This document shows, piece after piece, positions 4,780 through 34,066 of a stretch of 47,992 nucleotides of DNA (the first letter of the stretch is position 1; each line of letters starts with the position of its first letter). The stretch spans positions 1-47,992 of the forward strand of contig JBGPWS010000001.1 in assembly GCA_041492345.1 (NCBI GenBank). Reading direction: 5' to 3'. The stretch comes from Pyrinomonadaceae bacterium. Its GTDB lineage: Bacteria > Acidobacteriota > Blastocatellia > Pyrinomonadales > Pyrinomonadaceae. The notes under the pieces are model-generated. The model saw only the letters and a list, made by a program, of their open reading frames with translations. It was not told the origin of the DNA and ran no database searches. Made by a program: the position numbers and the translations under genes.

Positions 4780-5315
4780 GGAGGCGCGACCTTTCTCAGT
4801 GAGTGTTTCAGCCCACGGCAGGTGAGAATGCGTTGGAGTGCAGTGCTGGAGAGTACTGCTATAGCGCGTATACTCACGCGCAAAAACGAAACAGCGTCCT
4901 TTTTCCACGAGAACCTTGACGCTAAACGTGGTCTGATCAGTTACAACACTGCCCGCCGATTACTACATTTCATCAAGGCTCAATCCGGGCTCGTCCTTAG
5001 TGTTGGCAAAGCAAAGCACATGCCGGGATTTGCTCGCCGTTTGTCTTCAGCAACCGGCCTGAGAGACCGGCGTGCATGCGGAAAAATCACACAATGCTGC
5101 GAGGCTTTCCACATCAGCGTTCCTCACCAGCTGAAGGAACTCCGAGGGCTATGATGTTCTGGCGATTGATTGATCTTTCGTCGCACCGGCCAGCATTACT
5201 CTTCCGCTGGCCGGTCATGAGGAGATGGGCAAACAGCACACACAAAACCTGAGAAAGGCGGCCCAGTGACCGCCTTCATCTTTGCGATAAGTGATTGTCG
5301 GGAGTATAGATTATT

Positions 5316-5391
5316 TGGAGCCGGCTATCGGAGTCGAACCGATGACCTTGCGATTACGAATCGCACGCTCTACCAACTGAGCTAAGCCGGC
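5316..5391 (-). tRNA. tRNA-Thr (anticodon CGU)
   Basis: The reverse complement reads GCCGGCTTAGCTCAGTTGGTAGAGCGTGCGATTCGTAATCGCAAGGTCATCGGTTCGACTCCGATAGCCGGCTCCA. It has a 7-bp acceptor stem, anticodon stem TGCGA/TCGCA with loop TT-CGT-AA, a GGTTCGA T-loop and an encoded CCA. Confidence 0.93.
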
Positions 5392-19540: not shown

Positions 19541-19616
<76 letters not shown>

Positions 19617-30274: not shown

Positions 30275-31393
30275 CTAAACCTTAGTCAAGCTGTGTTGCA
30301 AAGCAACGCGTTTCTCATAGGCCTCGCGGGCAATCTGAACGTCTTCCAGAAAATATGCCAACTCCTTGAGCAGCAACGCCTGAGGTCCATCGACCAACGC
30401 TTTCGCGGGCTCGGGATGAAAATCAACTAGTATCATGTTCGCGCCGGCGATCACTCCCTGGGCGGTGGCGTGCATGATTTCCAGGATGCCTTCGGGCCCG
30501 CTGGTGCGCGAACCAACCGAGTGAGAAGGATCAATACAAACCGGCATCCGGGTTAGCCGCTTCACCACCGGCACATGAGCGAAGTCCACAAAATTTCGAT
30601 GCGGGTCGCCGATGTTTGTCTTCATGCCGCGCAGACCAAAAATCACTTTGCGATTTCCTTCGCTCGCCAGGTATTCGGCCGCGTGCAGCGATTCGTCCAG
30701 GTTAATCCCAAAGCCGCGCTTTAGCAGGATCGGAAATTCCTGCTGTCGCCCTGCGCTCTTCAGCAATTCGAAGTTCTGCGTGTTCCGAGTTCCGATTTGC
30801 AGCATCACGCCGGTAGGATTGCCAGTAAGGTTCAAAGCTCCATGAATCTCGTCGATGTGCGATTCGTGCGTGACTTCCATGGCGATGATTTTGATTCCGT
30901 ATTTGCCCGCCAACTCGAACACATACGGCAGGCAGTCTTTTCCATGTCCCTGGAACGAGTAGGCGCTGGTGCGCGGCTTGTAAGCTCCCATGCGCGTGCA
31001 CACCTGGCCGTTATCGCGCAGCGCGCGCATCATCAGCTCGACATTTTCTCGCGTGTCTACGGCGCACAACCCGGCAAAGACGTTGAGCGAGTCTTGGGAG
31101 AGGCGGATGCCCTGGTAGGTAAAATGCGCGGGCCGGCGATCGCCGTTGTGCCTACCCAGCACCCGGTATTCTTCCGAAACGCGCACGACCTGTTCGACGC
31201 CGGGAAGACTTTTCATCTCCGCAACGGGGAGTGTCGTTGTGTGCCCAATTAGATGAACTTCAGTTATCGACTGCTCGAGACCCTGTTCATGGTGGATGCG
31301 CAGCTCGATGTTTGGCAGCCGAGAAAGGTGATTCAGCAGTTGCTGGTATTCAGCACTTTCAAAGCTAAGATTTGGTTTCAGAATCAGAATCAT
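30275..31393 (-). CDS. 3-deoxy-7-phosphoheptulonate (DAHP) synthase, type I-beta with N-terminal ferredoxin-like regulatory domain
   Basis: Collinear with Thermotoga-type DAH7PS. Motifs GAYKPRTSAYSFQG, LLKRGFG, DPSHS and HPEPAKALVDGPQAL. It has a ~80-aa N-terminal ACT/FL-like domain. The start lies 7 nt after the tyrA stop. Confidence 0.9.
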   Translation of the reverse strand: MILILKPNLSFESAEYQQLLNHLSRLPNIELRIHHEQGLEQSITEVHLIGHTTTLPVAEMKSLPGVEQVVRVSEEYRVLGRHNGDRRPAHFTYQGIRLSQDSLNVFAGLCAVDTRENVELMMRALRDNGQVCTRMGAYKPRTSAYSFQGHGKDCLPYVFELAGKYGIKIIAMEVTHESHIDEIHGALNLTGNPTGVMLQIGTRNTQNFELLKSAGRQQEFPILLKRGFGINLDESLHAAEYLASEGNRKVIFGLRGMKTNIGDPHRNFVDFAHVPVVKRLTRMPVCIDPSHSVGSRTSGPEGILEIMHATAQGVIAGANMILVDFHPEPAKALVDGPQALLLKELAYFLEDVQIAREAYEKRVALQHSLTKV

Positions 31394-31400
31394 GATTGTA

Positions 31401-32591
31401 TTACTCCCGCCCGATGGCTCCTTCGTTTGCCGCTTTTGTCAGACAGTTTGCCTCAGTAAAAACTTGTTCAGTTTCGCTCATTTCGGCGCGCTTTCCTTCA
31501 CAGGGCGCGCGTAGCTCCTCCCGCACGATGTCCAACTTCTGCGCGAACACGTCAACCGCTGCTGCGATTTGGCCGTGGTTGGATTCCAGAATGTCACGCC
31601 ACATAGACCACGAACTTCCCGCCAGCCGCGTCATGTCGCGAAACCCGCTGCCCGAGACTGCGAGAAGGGCTTCCACATTTGGTTCGTTTCCAAGTGTCGC
31701 AGCCAAGGTAGTGGAAAGTATTTGTGGTAGATGGCTGATGAAGGTGAGCGCGCGGTCGTGTGCTTCGGGAGTCATTAGCCTCACACGCGCGCCGATTGCC
31801 TTCAGTGTTTCTTCAAAGGCTCGGAGTTGGTCAGTCTCCTCGCTGTCATCGACCAGCACGTATGGGGCATCTACAAAAAGCTCAGCATCAGAATAAGCGA
31901 GTCCCGAATGTTCGCTGCCTGCGATCGGGTGCCCGCCAACGAAGACGACCCCGTCCGGCAAATGCCCACGCGCTGCGTGACAGATTTCCACCTTCGTGCT
32001 GCCCGCGTCAGTAACCAGTGCGCCGGCATTTATCTGCTGTCCACGCTCTCGCAAAAACTCGAGAATGCCGCTCACCGGCATCGCCAAATAAATCAGATCC
32101 GATTGTGAGGGTGCGCCGTCGGCGAAAGACGAGTCGACTTCATCGATAATGCCGCGCCGCAGGCCCTCTTGCAGAACTTCTTCGGCAATATCCCAGCCGG
32201 CGATGCGCCGGCACGTTCCAGTCTTTCTCAAGGCCAGCGCGAAAGACGCGCCAATCAATCCGCAGCCAACGATCGTCACCCGGTTCCATTTTGGCCGTGC
32301 GATTTGTGAATCGGCTTTTGGTACGCTCTCGATAAATTGAATTCGTCGAGACTCATCAATGATCGTTTTGAAGATCTTTTTGATACCTTCTTCATTCAAA
32401 GGTCCTTCGCTCGATTCGCACACTCTCGTTAGGACTTCTCGTTCGCGATCCGGATCGCACAGAGGAGCACGCTTACGTTTCTTCACCAGTCCAATCTCGG
32501 AGGCGAGGCGGGCACGTCGGTTGAGCAAAGTCAGCAACTCGTCATCAATCGCGTCTATTTCAGCGCGCCACTTCTCGATCTTCTCATCCAT
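31401..32591 (-). CDS. tyrA: Bifunctional chorismate mutase (AroQ) / prephenate dehydrogenase
   Basis: The N-terminus 'WRAEIDAIDDELLTLLNRRARLASEIGLVK' is a type II chorismate mutase. It is followed by the Rossmann motif 'VTIVGCGLIGASFALAL' and a prephenate dehydrogenase body. AAGGAG RBS is present. Confidence 0.9.
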   Translation of the reverse strand: MDEKIEKWRAEIDAIDDELLTLLNRRARLASEIGLVKKRKRAPLCDPDREREVLTRVCESSEGPLNEEGIKKIFKTIIDESRRIQFIESVPKADSQIARPKWNRVTIVGCGLIGASFALALRKTGTCRRIAGWDIAEEVLQEGLRRGIIDEVDSSFADGAPSQSDLIYLAMPVSGILEFLRERGQQINAGALVTDAGSTKVEICHAARGHLPDGVVFVGGHPIAGSEHSGLAYSDAELFVDAPYVLVDDSEETDQLRAFEETLKAIGARVRLMTPEAHDRALTFISHLPQILSTTLAATLGNEPNVEALLAVSGSGFRDMTRLAGSSWSMWRDILESNHGQIAAAVDVFAQKLDIVREELRAPCEGKRAEMSETEQVFTEANCLTKAANEGAIGRE

Positions 32592-32611
32592 CGCAGCTCC
32601 TTCTTCACCGC

Positions 32612-32656
32612 AAAAAAAGAACCGGCCACTGTCCTTGCTGAAGGAAGTGGCCGGTT
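32612..32656 (-). terminator. Strong intrinsic terminator 20 nt upstream of the tyrA start codon (candidate attenuator)
   Basis: Minus-strand RNA AACCGGCCACU-UCCUU-CAGC-AAGGA-C-AGUGGCCGGUU (16 bp) is followed by CUUUUUUUG. The tyrA RBS follows directly. Confidence 0.8.
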
Positions 32657-32686
32657 GGTACTTGAACTTCTTAAACTACTAGATCA

Positions 32687-32776
32687 TCACGCGCTGCCAG
32701 CCAGCCACTCTCCATCCCTCACTCCGAAGAGCGGGCGGTAGTAGCGGTAATAACGATCGCTGGTGGTGTGATTCAT
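32687..32776 (-). CDS. Candidate Tyr-rich leader peptide (29 aa, not in ORF track)
   Basis: Product MNHTTSDRYYRYYRPLFGVRDGEWLAGSA, then TGA TGA. Four Tyr codons fall within five positions (codons 9-13). Codons 23-27 are complementary to the 5' arm of the terminator. No good SD (GAGGG is 17 nt upstream). Confidence 0.45.
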   Translation of the reverse strand: MNHTTSDRYYRYYRPLFGVRDGEWLAGSA

Positions 32777-32839
32777 CGTCTGTTGTCGCTGCGCCCTCTT
32801 TGACGCGCTGAACAAAGTTAAGGGCTGCGCCGGATTCTG

Positions 32840-33040
32840 TCAAGCATTTAGTGCCGTAAACACTTCCTCGCGCGATACGGCATCGTTACCAACCCCTTCG
32901 TCGATCGCCCGCGCTAGAGCGACATCTTCCATCGCTTCTTCGATAATTTCCTCAACGAACTCGCGGCGCTCTTCCAACACTTCAGCCACTGCGGATTTAA
33001 GCAGATCCTTCAATTTCGTTTCGTCTATCGATGTCGCCAT
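32840..33040 (-). CDS. Small acidic helical protein (66 aa), function unknown
   Basis: ATG 33040 after AGGAGA. Highly acidic, predicted helical (KDLLKSAVAEVLEERREFVEEIIEEAMEDVALARAIDEG). No partner gene recognised. Confidence 0.55.
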   Translation of the reverse strand: MATSIDETKLKDLLKSAVAEVLEERREFVEEIIEEAMEDVALARAIDEGVGNDAVSREEVFTALNA

Positions 33041-33236
33041 AAATCTCTCCTGTGAGCTTAAAGTAGCATCGCTGATTCCGAAAGGGAAGAAAGGACGCCA
33101 AGCATTCAGAGATCATACGCGCGCAGTGCCTCTTGGGTCTGAGGTCGCGAAGTAACATCATGGAACGCTAGCCCTGCGAAATGATTCTCTCAGTTGAGAG
33201 TCGTAAAGCGAGTCAATTTTGGTGTAGCATTGCCGC

Positions 33237-33640: not shown

Positions 33641-34066
33641 CTATTTCTCGCCACGGCGCCAAGTCGCAAAGACTTCCTTTTGTAACTTCGCGAGAACGCC
33701 TTTCGGATCGAAGAGACTTTTCATTCCGTTGCTAACAACCCGATGCGTTCCGGGATCAACAGGGATATCGGCCCATTCGGGCAGCGCGAAGCCGTATTCA
33801 ACTTCCAAATTATCCTTGTAGAACACCCGCAGAGATTTGCACCTTCCCCAGTCTTCGACTTTGCACTCAGTCACTCCGCCAAACAGGACCGACCATGATG
33901 AGTCGTTGATGTAGTTTTCTGGTTGGGTCGTGAGGATAATCAAATCAACGTCTGATTCTTCATCAGCAGATTCACGAGCCCACGACCCGACCAGCGCGAC
34001 AGCCTCAATGTTCGGCTGCGCGCTTGCCCATTGACTGAATTTGTCGAGGAAAGCTTTGACGTTCAC
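33641..34066 (-). CDS. Minimal nucleotidyltransferase-fold protein (141 aa)
   Basis: 'VALVGSWARESADEESDVDLIILT' matches the GS..(D/E)xD pol-beta NTase signature. GTG start, no clear SD. Confidence 0.6.
   Translation of the reverse strand: MNVKAFLDKFSQWASAQPNIEAVALVGSWARESADEESDVDLIILTTQPENYINDSSWSVLFGGVTECKVEDWGRCKSLRVFYKDNLEVEYGFALPEWADIPVDPGTHRVVSNGMKSLFDPKGVLAKLQKEVFATWRRGEK

Follow-up and report, generated by a model that had tools for sequence, protein, structure and literature searches.

A candidate tyrosine-sensing leader-peptide attenuator before the tyrA-DAHP synthase operon of a Pyrinomonadaceae bacterium, with parallel aromatic leaders in the Acidobacteriota

How are the tyrosine-synthesis genes of a soil acidobacterium turned on and off? 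The question is raised by a 47,992-nt contig of a Pyrinomonadaceae bacterium (JBGPWS010000001.1, assembly GCA_041492345.1; this whole stretch of DNA is called the window below), the minus strand of which carries tyrA, encoding a fused chorismate mutase and prephenate dehydrogenase, followed by a gene for 3-deoxy-D-arabino-heptulosonate 7-phosphate (DAHP) synthase. An original prediction, made from the letters of the DNA, had proposed that the 248 nt between tyrA and a small upstream gene form a leader-peptide attenuator that reads tyrosine codons. The in silico tests that we ran favoured this proposal, and on the strength of sequence comparison and RNA folding we consider it probable that the element is a ribosome-mediated, Tyr-tRNA-sensing transcription attenuator of tyrA and the DAHP synthase gene. 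Most likely, the bacterium would use it to turn on these genes when charged tyrosine tRNA is scarce. Leader-peptide attenuation is a textbook mechanism, the documented specificities of which are mainly Trp, Phe, His, Leu, Thr and Ile/Val. Tyrosine genes have been described as being under the control of the TyrR repressor or of T-boxes (PMC1262725, PMC11802643), so a leader with a run of Tyr codons directly before tyrA would fill a gap in the known attenuator specificities.

The first component of the element is an open reading frame (ORF) of 29 codons, found where the original prediction had placed it; the program-made ORF list gives the same frame as a 42-amino acid version extended to a TTG codon. 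Four of five consecutive codons in this ORF specify Tyr (Table 1). Chance would give 0.024 runs of at least four Tyr codons in five over both strands and all frames of the window, and 6e-5 such runs in the 248-nt region; the leader is the sole case in the window. The second component is an intrinsic terminator, with the 16-bp hairpin and U7 tract that had been claimed. Its stem, in which one C is bulged, is formed by the 5' arm AACCGGCCACUUCCUU (32656-32641) and the 3' arm AAGGA-C-AGUGGCCGGUU (32636-32620) around a CAGC loop, and a single C lies between the hairpin and the U-tract; because of the bulge, a consensus terminator scan missed it. The outer stem is invariant in all of the relatives described below. 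From the end of the U-tract to the tyrA ATG (32591) there are 20 nt, with no promoter among them, and the earlier statement that there is no room for a separate tyrA promoter holds. The Shine-Dalgarno sequence of tyrA is outside the hairpin, which points to transcriptional control rather than to sequestration of the ribosome-binding site.

What makes the terminator a candidate switch is that its 5' side has another potential partner. Region 2 (AGUGGCUGGCUGG, leader codons 23-27) can pair with region 3 (CCAACCGGCCACU), which is common to the antiterminator and to the terminator, where its partner is region 4. As had been described, the 2:3 pairing begins with 9 pairs, one of them G-U, and continues after a C/A mismatch with 3 more; region 2 nearly duplicates the terminator 3' arm (AGUGGCUGG versus AGUGGCCGG). 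Folding energies are -22.0 kcal/mol for the antiterminator segment and -25.0 kcal/mol for the terminator. The most stable duplex that the leader can form with the 5' arm of the terminator reaches -22.6 kcal/mol, compared with -13.6 +/- 2.4 kcal/mol for shuffled sequences, only 1 of 1000 of which did as well. Among the 10 aligned sequences, 12 of the 13 bases of region 2 are invariant, third codon positions included.

The original prediction had not described an anti-antiterminator, and the alignment supplies one. Region 1 (CCAGCGAU), which directly precedes the Tyr run, forms a helix with GUGGCUGG of region 2, and in the RNAalifold consensus this helix (columns 54-61/109-116) is paired in 95% of cells; taken together, region 1 and the 5' untranslated region (5'-UTR) pair with region 2 and its 3' flank in 93-97% of cells. 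The contribution of the 5'-UTR comes from a GC-rich stem-loop, the 3' half of which (GCGCAGC) has a second possible partner, GCAGCGC, directly ahead of the leader stop; this pairing is the RNAalifold helix at columns 23-29/120-126, and it includes one compensatory change, from C-G to U-A, in the relative L162 (loci fetched for comparison carry L numbers). In L177, the most divergent relative, the bases of the 1:2 helix have changed and make up a perfect 9-bp version (CCGCCAGCU/AGCUGGCGG). Nested inside the 1:2 pairing is the UUCG-tetraloop hairpin already noted in the original prediction, in which 2 of 7 pairs show compensatory changes. This hairpin may serve as an RNA polymerase pause hairpin or as a nucleator of the 1:2 helix.

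In order to see whether these parts belong together, we turned to relatives of the operon. About 30 close homologues of TyrA (62-99% identity) occur in metagenomes and metagenome-assembled genomes (MAGs), and contigs were fetched singly for individual homologous proteins, giving 11 distinct relatives: L081, L161, L162, L165, L167-L171, L177 and the near-identical set L163/L164. Scans of genome and metagenome contigs with a TyrA alignment returned, among the matches listed, mostly distant loci with prephenate dehydrogenase only, and L081 as the only close relative. In all 11 relatives, whose TyrA proteins are 62-85% identical to that of the window, the two-gene operon, the short ORF, the Tyr run and the terminator are all kept. 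The genes upstream differ by lineage (radical SAM, an unknown 73-aa protein, TfoX_N on the opposite strand, SecG, alcohol dehydrogenase and others), indicating that the constant element belongs to tyrA and that the hairpin is not a terminator of the gene upstream.

This comparison bears on the reading, raised with the original prediction, that the hairpin merely terminates the 66-aa RelB-like gene upstream, the Tyr ORF being a chance occurrence and tyrA being transcribed from elsewhere. Such a role would agree with the orientation of the hairpin, which is on the same strand and 184 nt past the stop of the 66-aa gene. The RelB-like gene, however, is present in none of the 11 relatives, all of which have the leader and terminator, and the gene upstream is oppositely oriented in L165 and L171. 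A TTGACA -35 sequence lies between the 66-aa gene and the leader, and the rarity of such a Tyr run together with the short distance from the U-tract to tyrA speak for a connection with the operon. We regard this explanation as refuted by the comparative data, and it is the least probable of those considered here.

Two other candidates were set aside. A radical SAM gene upstream in L161 could have made the leader a precursor of a ribosomally synthesized and post-translationally modified peptide, but that neighbour occurs in only one lineage. A group of chorismate mutase-prephenate dehydrogenase loci with 46-50% identity (L082, L173-L176) was rejected as part of the family, having the reversed order with DAHP synthase first and no Tyr leader. 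Four members of this group carry a conserved pyrimidine-rich stretch, TTACACCTCACRCTCYAAATARCTTTCAYTCA, just before the ribosome-binding site of the DAHP synthase gene (L082:1290-1385, L173:1350-1421, L174:1395-1455 and L176:1395-1456).

Within the relatives, the upstream ORF has 28-30 codons, with four or five Tyr within six or seven codons, as in RYYRYY, RYYYCYY, YRYYSY, YSYYSY and YCYYCY. The Tyr codons are retained, with synonymous swaps of UAU and UAC, among intervening residues that differ from one sequence to another (Arg, Ser, Cys). Indels within the ORF are limited to two 3-nt gaps, compared with gaps of 1, 2, 4 and 5 nt in the 5'-UTR and in the spacer from stop to terminator. The ORF thus carries coding signatures, in its in-frame indels and its synonymous Tyr-codon changes. 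The double stop of the original prediction exists in the window and is not a conserved trait: the first UGA is kept in 10 of 10 aligned sequences and the second in only 5 of 10, TGATGT taking the place of the double stop in L081 and L168-L171, while the ORF of L177 ends at a downstream UAG. Of the degenerate codons for invariant residues, 6 of 7 outside region 2 vary synonymously and 0 of 3 inside it (CUG GCU GGC), a contrast with a Fisher probability of about 0.03. That the silent positions of region 2 never vary suggests a constraint at the RNA level on the antiterminator strand.

The same alignment allows a further explanation to be weighed, namely that the ORF encodes a small functional peptide, or that the terminated leader of about 200 nt is a trans-acting small RNA (sRNA), tyrA being expressed by partial read-through with no sensing of tyrosine. 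Conservation does extend beyond the Tyr run (RPLFGV...WLAGSA), and there are precedents in Sinorhizobium, where the trpL attenuator is known to give rise to peptides and sRNAs that act in trans (PMC7298713, PMC6614838). The conserved positions outside the Tyr run fall mainly in RNA helices (region 2 and the small hairpin), and silent sites are among them. Between the leader families described below, the aromatic run persists and the peptide sequence does not, and the element is always joined to the tyrA operon, with only 20 promoterless nucleotides separating U-tract and ATG. A function in trans would moreover add to attenuation rather than exclude it. As a replacement for attenuation, we consider this explanation quite improbable.

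If the leader works as an attenuator, the events could be as follows. Transcription would start from the leader promoter, whose -35 box shares bases with the stop codon of the RelB-like gene, and we infer that the roughly 200-nt leader would be translated into a 29-residue peptide containing YYRYY. When Tyr-tRNA is ample, the ribosome would reach the UGA and cover region 2, which ends 7 nt before the stop, so that regions 3 and 4 would pair, the 16-bp/U7 terminator would form and transcription would stop 20 nt short of tyrA. When Tyr-tRNA is scarce, the ribosome would stall on the Tyr codons and mask region 1, leaving region 2 free more than 25 nt downstream; region 2 would then pair with newly transcribed region 3, at -22 kcal/mol, blocking the terminator and allowing the operon to be read through. 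Without translation, region 2 would be held by region 1 and the 5'-UTR, and the terminator would form.

We examined this scheme by folding the 10 aligned sequences with a ribosome footprint of 29 nt imposed, using transcripts cut before region 4 to mimic the co-transcriptional order. The ribosome-position switch of the original prediction was reproduced in these constrained folds. When the A site contained the first or second Tyr codon, the expected number of 2:3 pairs was 8-13 in 9 of 10 sequences (about 5 in L170); when it contained the last one, the number was lower in L167 (2.8) and L171 (4.7). A ribosome at the stop codon left 0-1.4 expected 2:3 pairs in all 10 sequences, because its footprint covers region 2. 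When no ribosome was present, five of the cut transcripts sequestered region 2 upstream, two were mixed and three, including that of the window, preferred the 2:3 pairing, so that the branch leading from absence of translation to termination would rest on the 1:2 helix forming first.

Table 1. Positions of the elements and genes discussed in the text (positions are those of the window unless a locus is named)
Feature	Position	Strand	Basis or detail
Leader ORF, 29 codons and stop, MNHTTSDRYYRYYRPLFGVRDGEWLAGSA	32687..32776	-	ORF list and sequence
Regulatory codons UAU UAC CGC UAC UAC (Y Y R Y Y)	32738..32752	-	four Tyr in five codons
Leader stop UGA, then second in-frame UGA	32684..32689	-	sequence
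Intrinsic terminator, 16-bp hairpin (32656-32620) and U7 (32618-32612)	32612..32656	-	-25.0 kcal/mol
Region 1, codons 5-7, 5' strand of anti-antiterminator	32756..32763	-	RNAalifold
UUCG-tetraloop hairpin right after Tyr codons, core CGCUC-UUCG-GAGUG (32733-32720)	32717..32735	-	-8.9 kcal/mol
Region 2, antiterminator strand	32697..32709	-	pairs with region 3
Region 3	32646..32658	-	sequence and folding
5'-UTR GC-rich stem-loop	32788..32808	-	single-sequence folds
-35-like hexamer TTGACA of the leader promoter, overlapping TGA stop of RelB-like gene	32838..32843	-	sequence and conservation
-10-like hexamer TAACTT, 17 nt past the -35	32815..32820	-	sequence and alignment
Shine-Dalgarno of tyrA, GAAGGAG	32597..32603	-	read from sequence and alignment
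tyrA, regulated gene 1	31401..32591	-	Pfam CM_2, PDH_N, PDH_C
DAHP synthase with N-terminal ferredoxin-like regulatory domain, regulated gene 2	30275..31393	-	Pfam DAHP_synth_1, DAHP_snth_FXD
Upstream 66-aa gene, RelB-like antitoxin	32840-33040	-	Pfam PF25734
Phe/Tyr leader of Pyrinomonas methylaliphatogenes K22 (cultured), NZ_CBXV010000005.1	L003:571-740

Several observations weigh against attenuation by a translating ribosome. Full-length equilibrium folds with a stalled ribosome keep the terminator in 7 of 10 sequences, so that the model needs the usual kinetic argument, in which the antiterminator forms first. Classical attenuators likewise keep the terminator at equilibrium, the order of synthesis being what decides. 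In none of the aligned sequences is the leader ATG preceded by a GGAGG-like Shine-Dalgarno sequence (ACAACAGACG-AUG in the transcript), and initiation would have to be Shine-Dalgarno-independent. Covariation is scarce, as the relatives are close (78% mean column identity): the helices of the terminator and of the antiterminator hardly vary and give no covariation signal, and compensatory changes are limited to two pairs of the small hairpin and one pair of the long-range helix. In L177, region 2 is changed and folding did not recover an antiterminator. Finally, the second (Phe/Tyr) leader family, family B, introduced below, has less clean alternative pairings, with two competing partners for the terminator 5' arm.

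It is also conceivable that the attenuator is real and that its sensor is an RNA-binding protein, a small-molecule riboswitch or uncharged tRNA, the short ORF being incidental or modulatory. The leader ORF without a Shine-Dalgarno sequence would fit such a sensor, as would the highly structured RNA (the whole 248-nt region folds with z = -3.2) and the conservation of both the sequence from stop to terminator and the promoter spacer. In searches against Rfam, however, no leader or riboswitch family matched the window at the gathering threshold, the sole matches in it being two tRNA genes (5319-5391 on the minus strand and 19541-19613 on the plus strand), and none matched positions 32400-33100 even at E<=10. 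At the element, Trp_leader, Phe_leader, His_leader, Leu_leader and Thr_leader gave no match even at E<=10, nor did the T-box covariance model RF00230 at that limit, which disposes of the T-box that the original prediction had named as a possibility. The coding signatures of the ORF stand against a sensor other than the ribosome, and such a sensor would not predict that Tyr runs recur in unrelated leaders in keeping with the content of the operon. We judge it unlikely, though a little less so than a mere peptide or sRNA function.

That recurrence emerged when 178 fetched loci were scanned for short ORFs with at least three Tyr in seven codons, or at least five aromatic residues in ten, followed by a hairpin and a T-run. 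Further leaders were found in Acidobacteriota, and elsewhere among the 178 loci none was convincing. Many Pyrinomonadaceae have a leader of the form M..ARFYYFAFTYRY.YGG.., with mixed Phe and Tyr codons and a terminator of -26 to -36 kcal/mol. This family is present in the cultured strain Pyrinomonas methylaliphatogenes K22 (L003) and also in L007, L009-L012, L014-L017, L022 and L100. It precedes an operon of chorismate mutase and prephenate dehydratase (in L003 with DAHP synthase), then prephenate dehydrogenase, a content that was verified with Pfam in L003, L007, L010, L015, L017 and L022; in L074, a similar operon lies behind a different Phe/Tyr-rich leader. The family B leader of L012 has a CCCC-UUCG-GGGG hairpin after its aromatic codons, like that of the window. 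Two copies of Acido-Lenti-1 RNA (RF01687) flank the region of the aromatic operon in a Pyrinomonadaceae MAG (L015:59-103 and 5257-5301).

In L021, from the Blastocatellia, a homologous leader is shifted to Tyr (NYYAYAYRCFY) and precedes chorismate mutase, prephenate dehydrogenase and DAHP synthase, with no dehydratase; the only antiterminator candidate that folding gave there is a copy of the terminator 3' arm in the 5'-UTR. An in-frame stop at L021:3292-3294 separates chorismate mutase from prephenate dehydrogenase, making two genes rather than a fusion. Either the fusion is specific to the clade of the window, or the stop in L021 is an assembly error.

The Terriglobia loci L039 and L059 both have leaders with a pure Tyr run, YSYRYYYYY (CYSYRYYYYYRG), and a terminator (L039:1253-1460, L059:1742-1955), and the leader at L149:374-510 has the pure run YYYYYY (AYYYYYYGSY), again with a terminator. 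All three precede DAHP synthase and a prephenate dehydrogenase-chorismate mutase fusion in which chorismate mutase is C-terminal, and no dehydratase is present. Tyr-dominant leaders are thus found with operons that have no prephenate dehydratase, and mixed Phe/Tyr leaders with operons that have one. A sensor based on ribosome stalling predicts that the Phe/Tyr make-up of the leader should track operon content in this way, and a protein or ligand sensor does not. The peptide sequences of the families are unlike, the aromatic run being what they have in common, and Rfam holds no family for any of the Acidobacteriota aromatic leaders found. We think it rather likely that the Acidobacteriota have a set of aromatic leader-peptide attenuators whose Phe/Tyr mix is matched to the enzymes of the operon, and that the leader in the window would then be the first dedicated tyrosine-sensing leader peptide.

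The element begins a few nucleotides earlier than had been proposed, at the -35 box (32843-32838), with its other parts as placed. The start of transcription is predicted near 32809. The -35 is exactly TTGACA in 7 of 10 aligned sequences and in L177, followed there 17-18 nt later by a TAACTT-like -10, and a TTGACA-like -35 is found upstream in 10 of the 11 relatives, L168 being the exception; the -10 position keeps TTAACT, TTAGCT or TTAATT in the alignment. A scan with the strict sigma-70 consensus did not call the leader promoter, the -10 box of which matches at 3 of 6 positions, and both promoter and terminator were recognised by reading the sequence and its conservation. The spacer between the boxes (32821-32837, minus strand) is GC-rich and conserved (GAATCCGGCGCRGCC), and in L165 it is a perfect palindrome (ACGGGCGCGCCCGT). 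A possible role for this spacer could be that of an operator for an additional protein regulator.

The gap between tyrA and the DAHP synthase gene is 7 nt, and the identical gene pair is found in all relatives; the best protein matches are in Pyrinomonadaceae and other Acidobacteriota. The RelB-like gene, which is preceded by a clear Shine-Dalgarno sequence (GGAGAG), has no obvious adjoining toxin partner, and a small nucleotidyltransferase (MNT-like) gene lies farther upstream of it at 33641-34066 on the minus strand. Missing from all relatives of the operon, the RelB-like gene looks like a recent insertion.

The mechanism proposed here is classical and not new; what it would do is extend attenuation to tyrosine and to the Acidobacteriota. 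If it is true, Tyr joins the short list of amino acids read by ribosome stalling, and classical attenuation operates in a little-studied phylum, in which attenuators are essentially unannotated according to Naville and Gautheret (PMC2965389). The parallel leaders would amount to a natural experiment in which the specificity of an attenuator evolves with the content of its operon, and since a cultured strain, P. methylaliphatogenes K22, carries one of them, the idea is testable. The short ORFs of these leaders are unannotated, and they would account for conserved "intergenic" sequence and terminators directly ahead of biosynthetic genes. The statement in the original prediction that no Tyr-leader attenuation is known for tyrA in this kind of organism agrees with our search of Rfam and of the literature, in which no Tyr-run leader was found; subscription journals were mostly outside the coverage of that search, and a prior description is possible. 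A 2005 table from the Merino database (PMC1173090) lists predicted terminator/antiterminator pairs before tyrA operons in several phyla. Those predictions concern structure only; the term "leader peptide" does not occur in the text of that paper, and the parts of its Table 7 that are shown include no Acidobacteriota.

The systems that most resemble the element are the pheL-pheA and trpL-trpEDCBA attenuators of E. coli (summarised in PMC11802643 and PMC3082878), which have the same succession of a promoter, a short ORF with codons for the end product, regions 1-4 and a U-tract before the first gene; E. coli pheA, like tyrA of the window, is a chorismate mutase fusion. The leader in the window differs in that its regulatory codons are for Tyr rather than Phe or Trp, in its lack of a Shine-Dalgarno sequence, in its phylum, and in having no sequence or Rfam similarity to them. 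Its stop codon, moreover, comes after region 2, whereas in trpL and pheL the stop lies between regions 1 and 2; a terminating ribosome would thus cover region 2 entirely. For tyrA itself, E. coli relies on the TyrR repressor instead of a Tyr leader (PMC11802643).

Tyrosine T-boxes of the Firmicutes also read the charging of tRNA-Tyr and choose between terminator and antiterminator before tyrosine genes, but they bind uncharged tRNA directly, by way of a stem I, a specifier loop and the T-box sequence, and need no translation. Seliverstov et al. (PMC1262725) assign the genes for Tyr to T-box regulation and those for Phe, His and Thr to attenuators.

The closest precedents for an aromatic leader outside the Proteobacteria are aroR-aroF of C. 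glutamicum and a Phe upstream ORF (uORF) of Acholeplasma. AroR resembles the leader in the window in that aromatic codons, Tyr included, precede a DAHP synthase operon and ribosome stalling raises read-through. According to the summary of Neshat et al. 2014 given in PMC11802643, its codons are Phe-Tyr-Phe and it responds to Phe, not to Tyr; the leader before tyrA described here has a run of four or five Tyr without any Phe, precedes the enzyme of the Tyr branch itself, and is unrelated to AroR in sequence and phylum. The Acholeplasma uORFC-13-1 (PMC8632094), like the leader in the window, was predicted from comparative genomics alone as a uORF with an intrinsic terminator before aroF, accompanied by promoter-like boxes. 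It differs in having a run of Phe (UUU) codons, in belonging to another lineage and in the absence of tyrA, the gene that the Tyr run of the window directly precedes.

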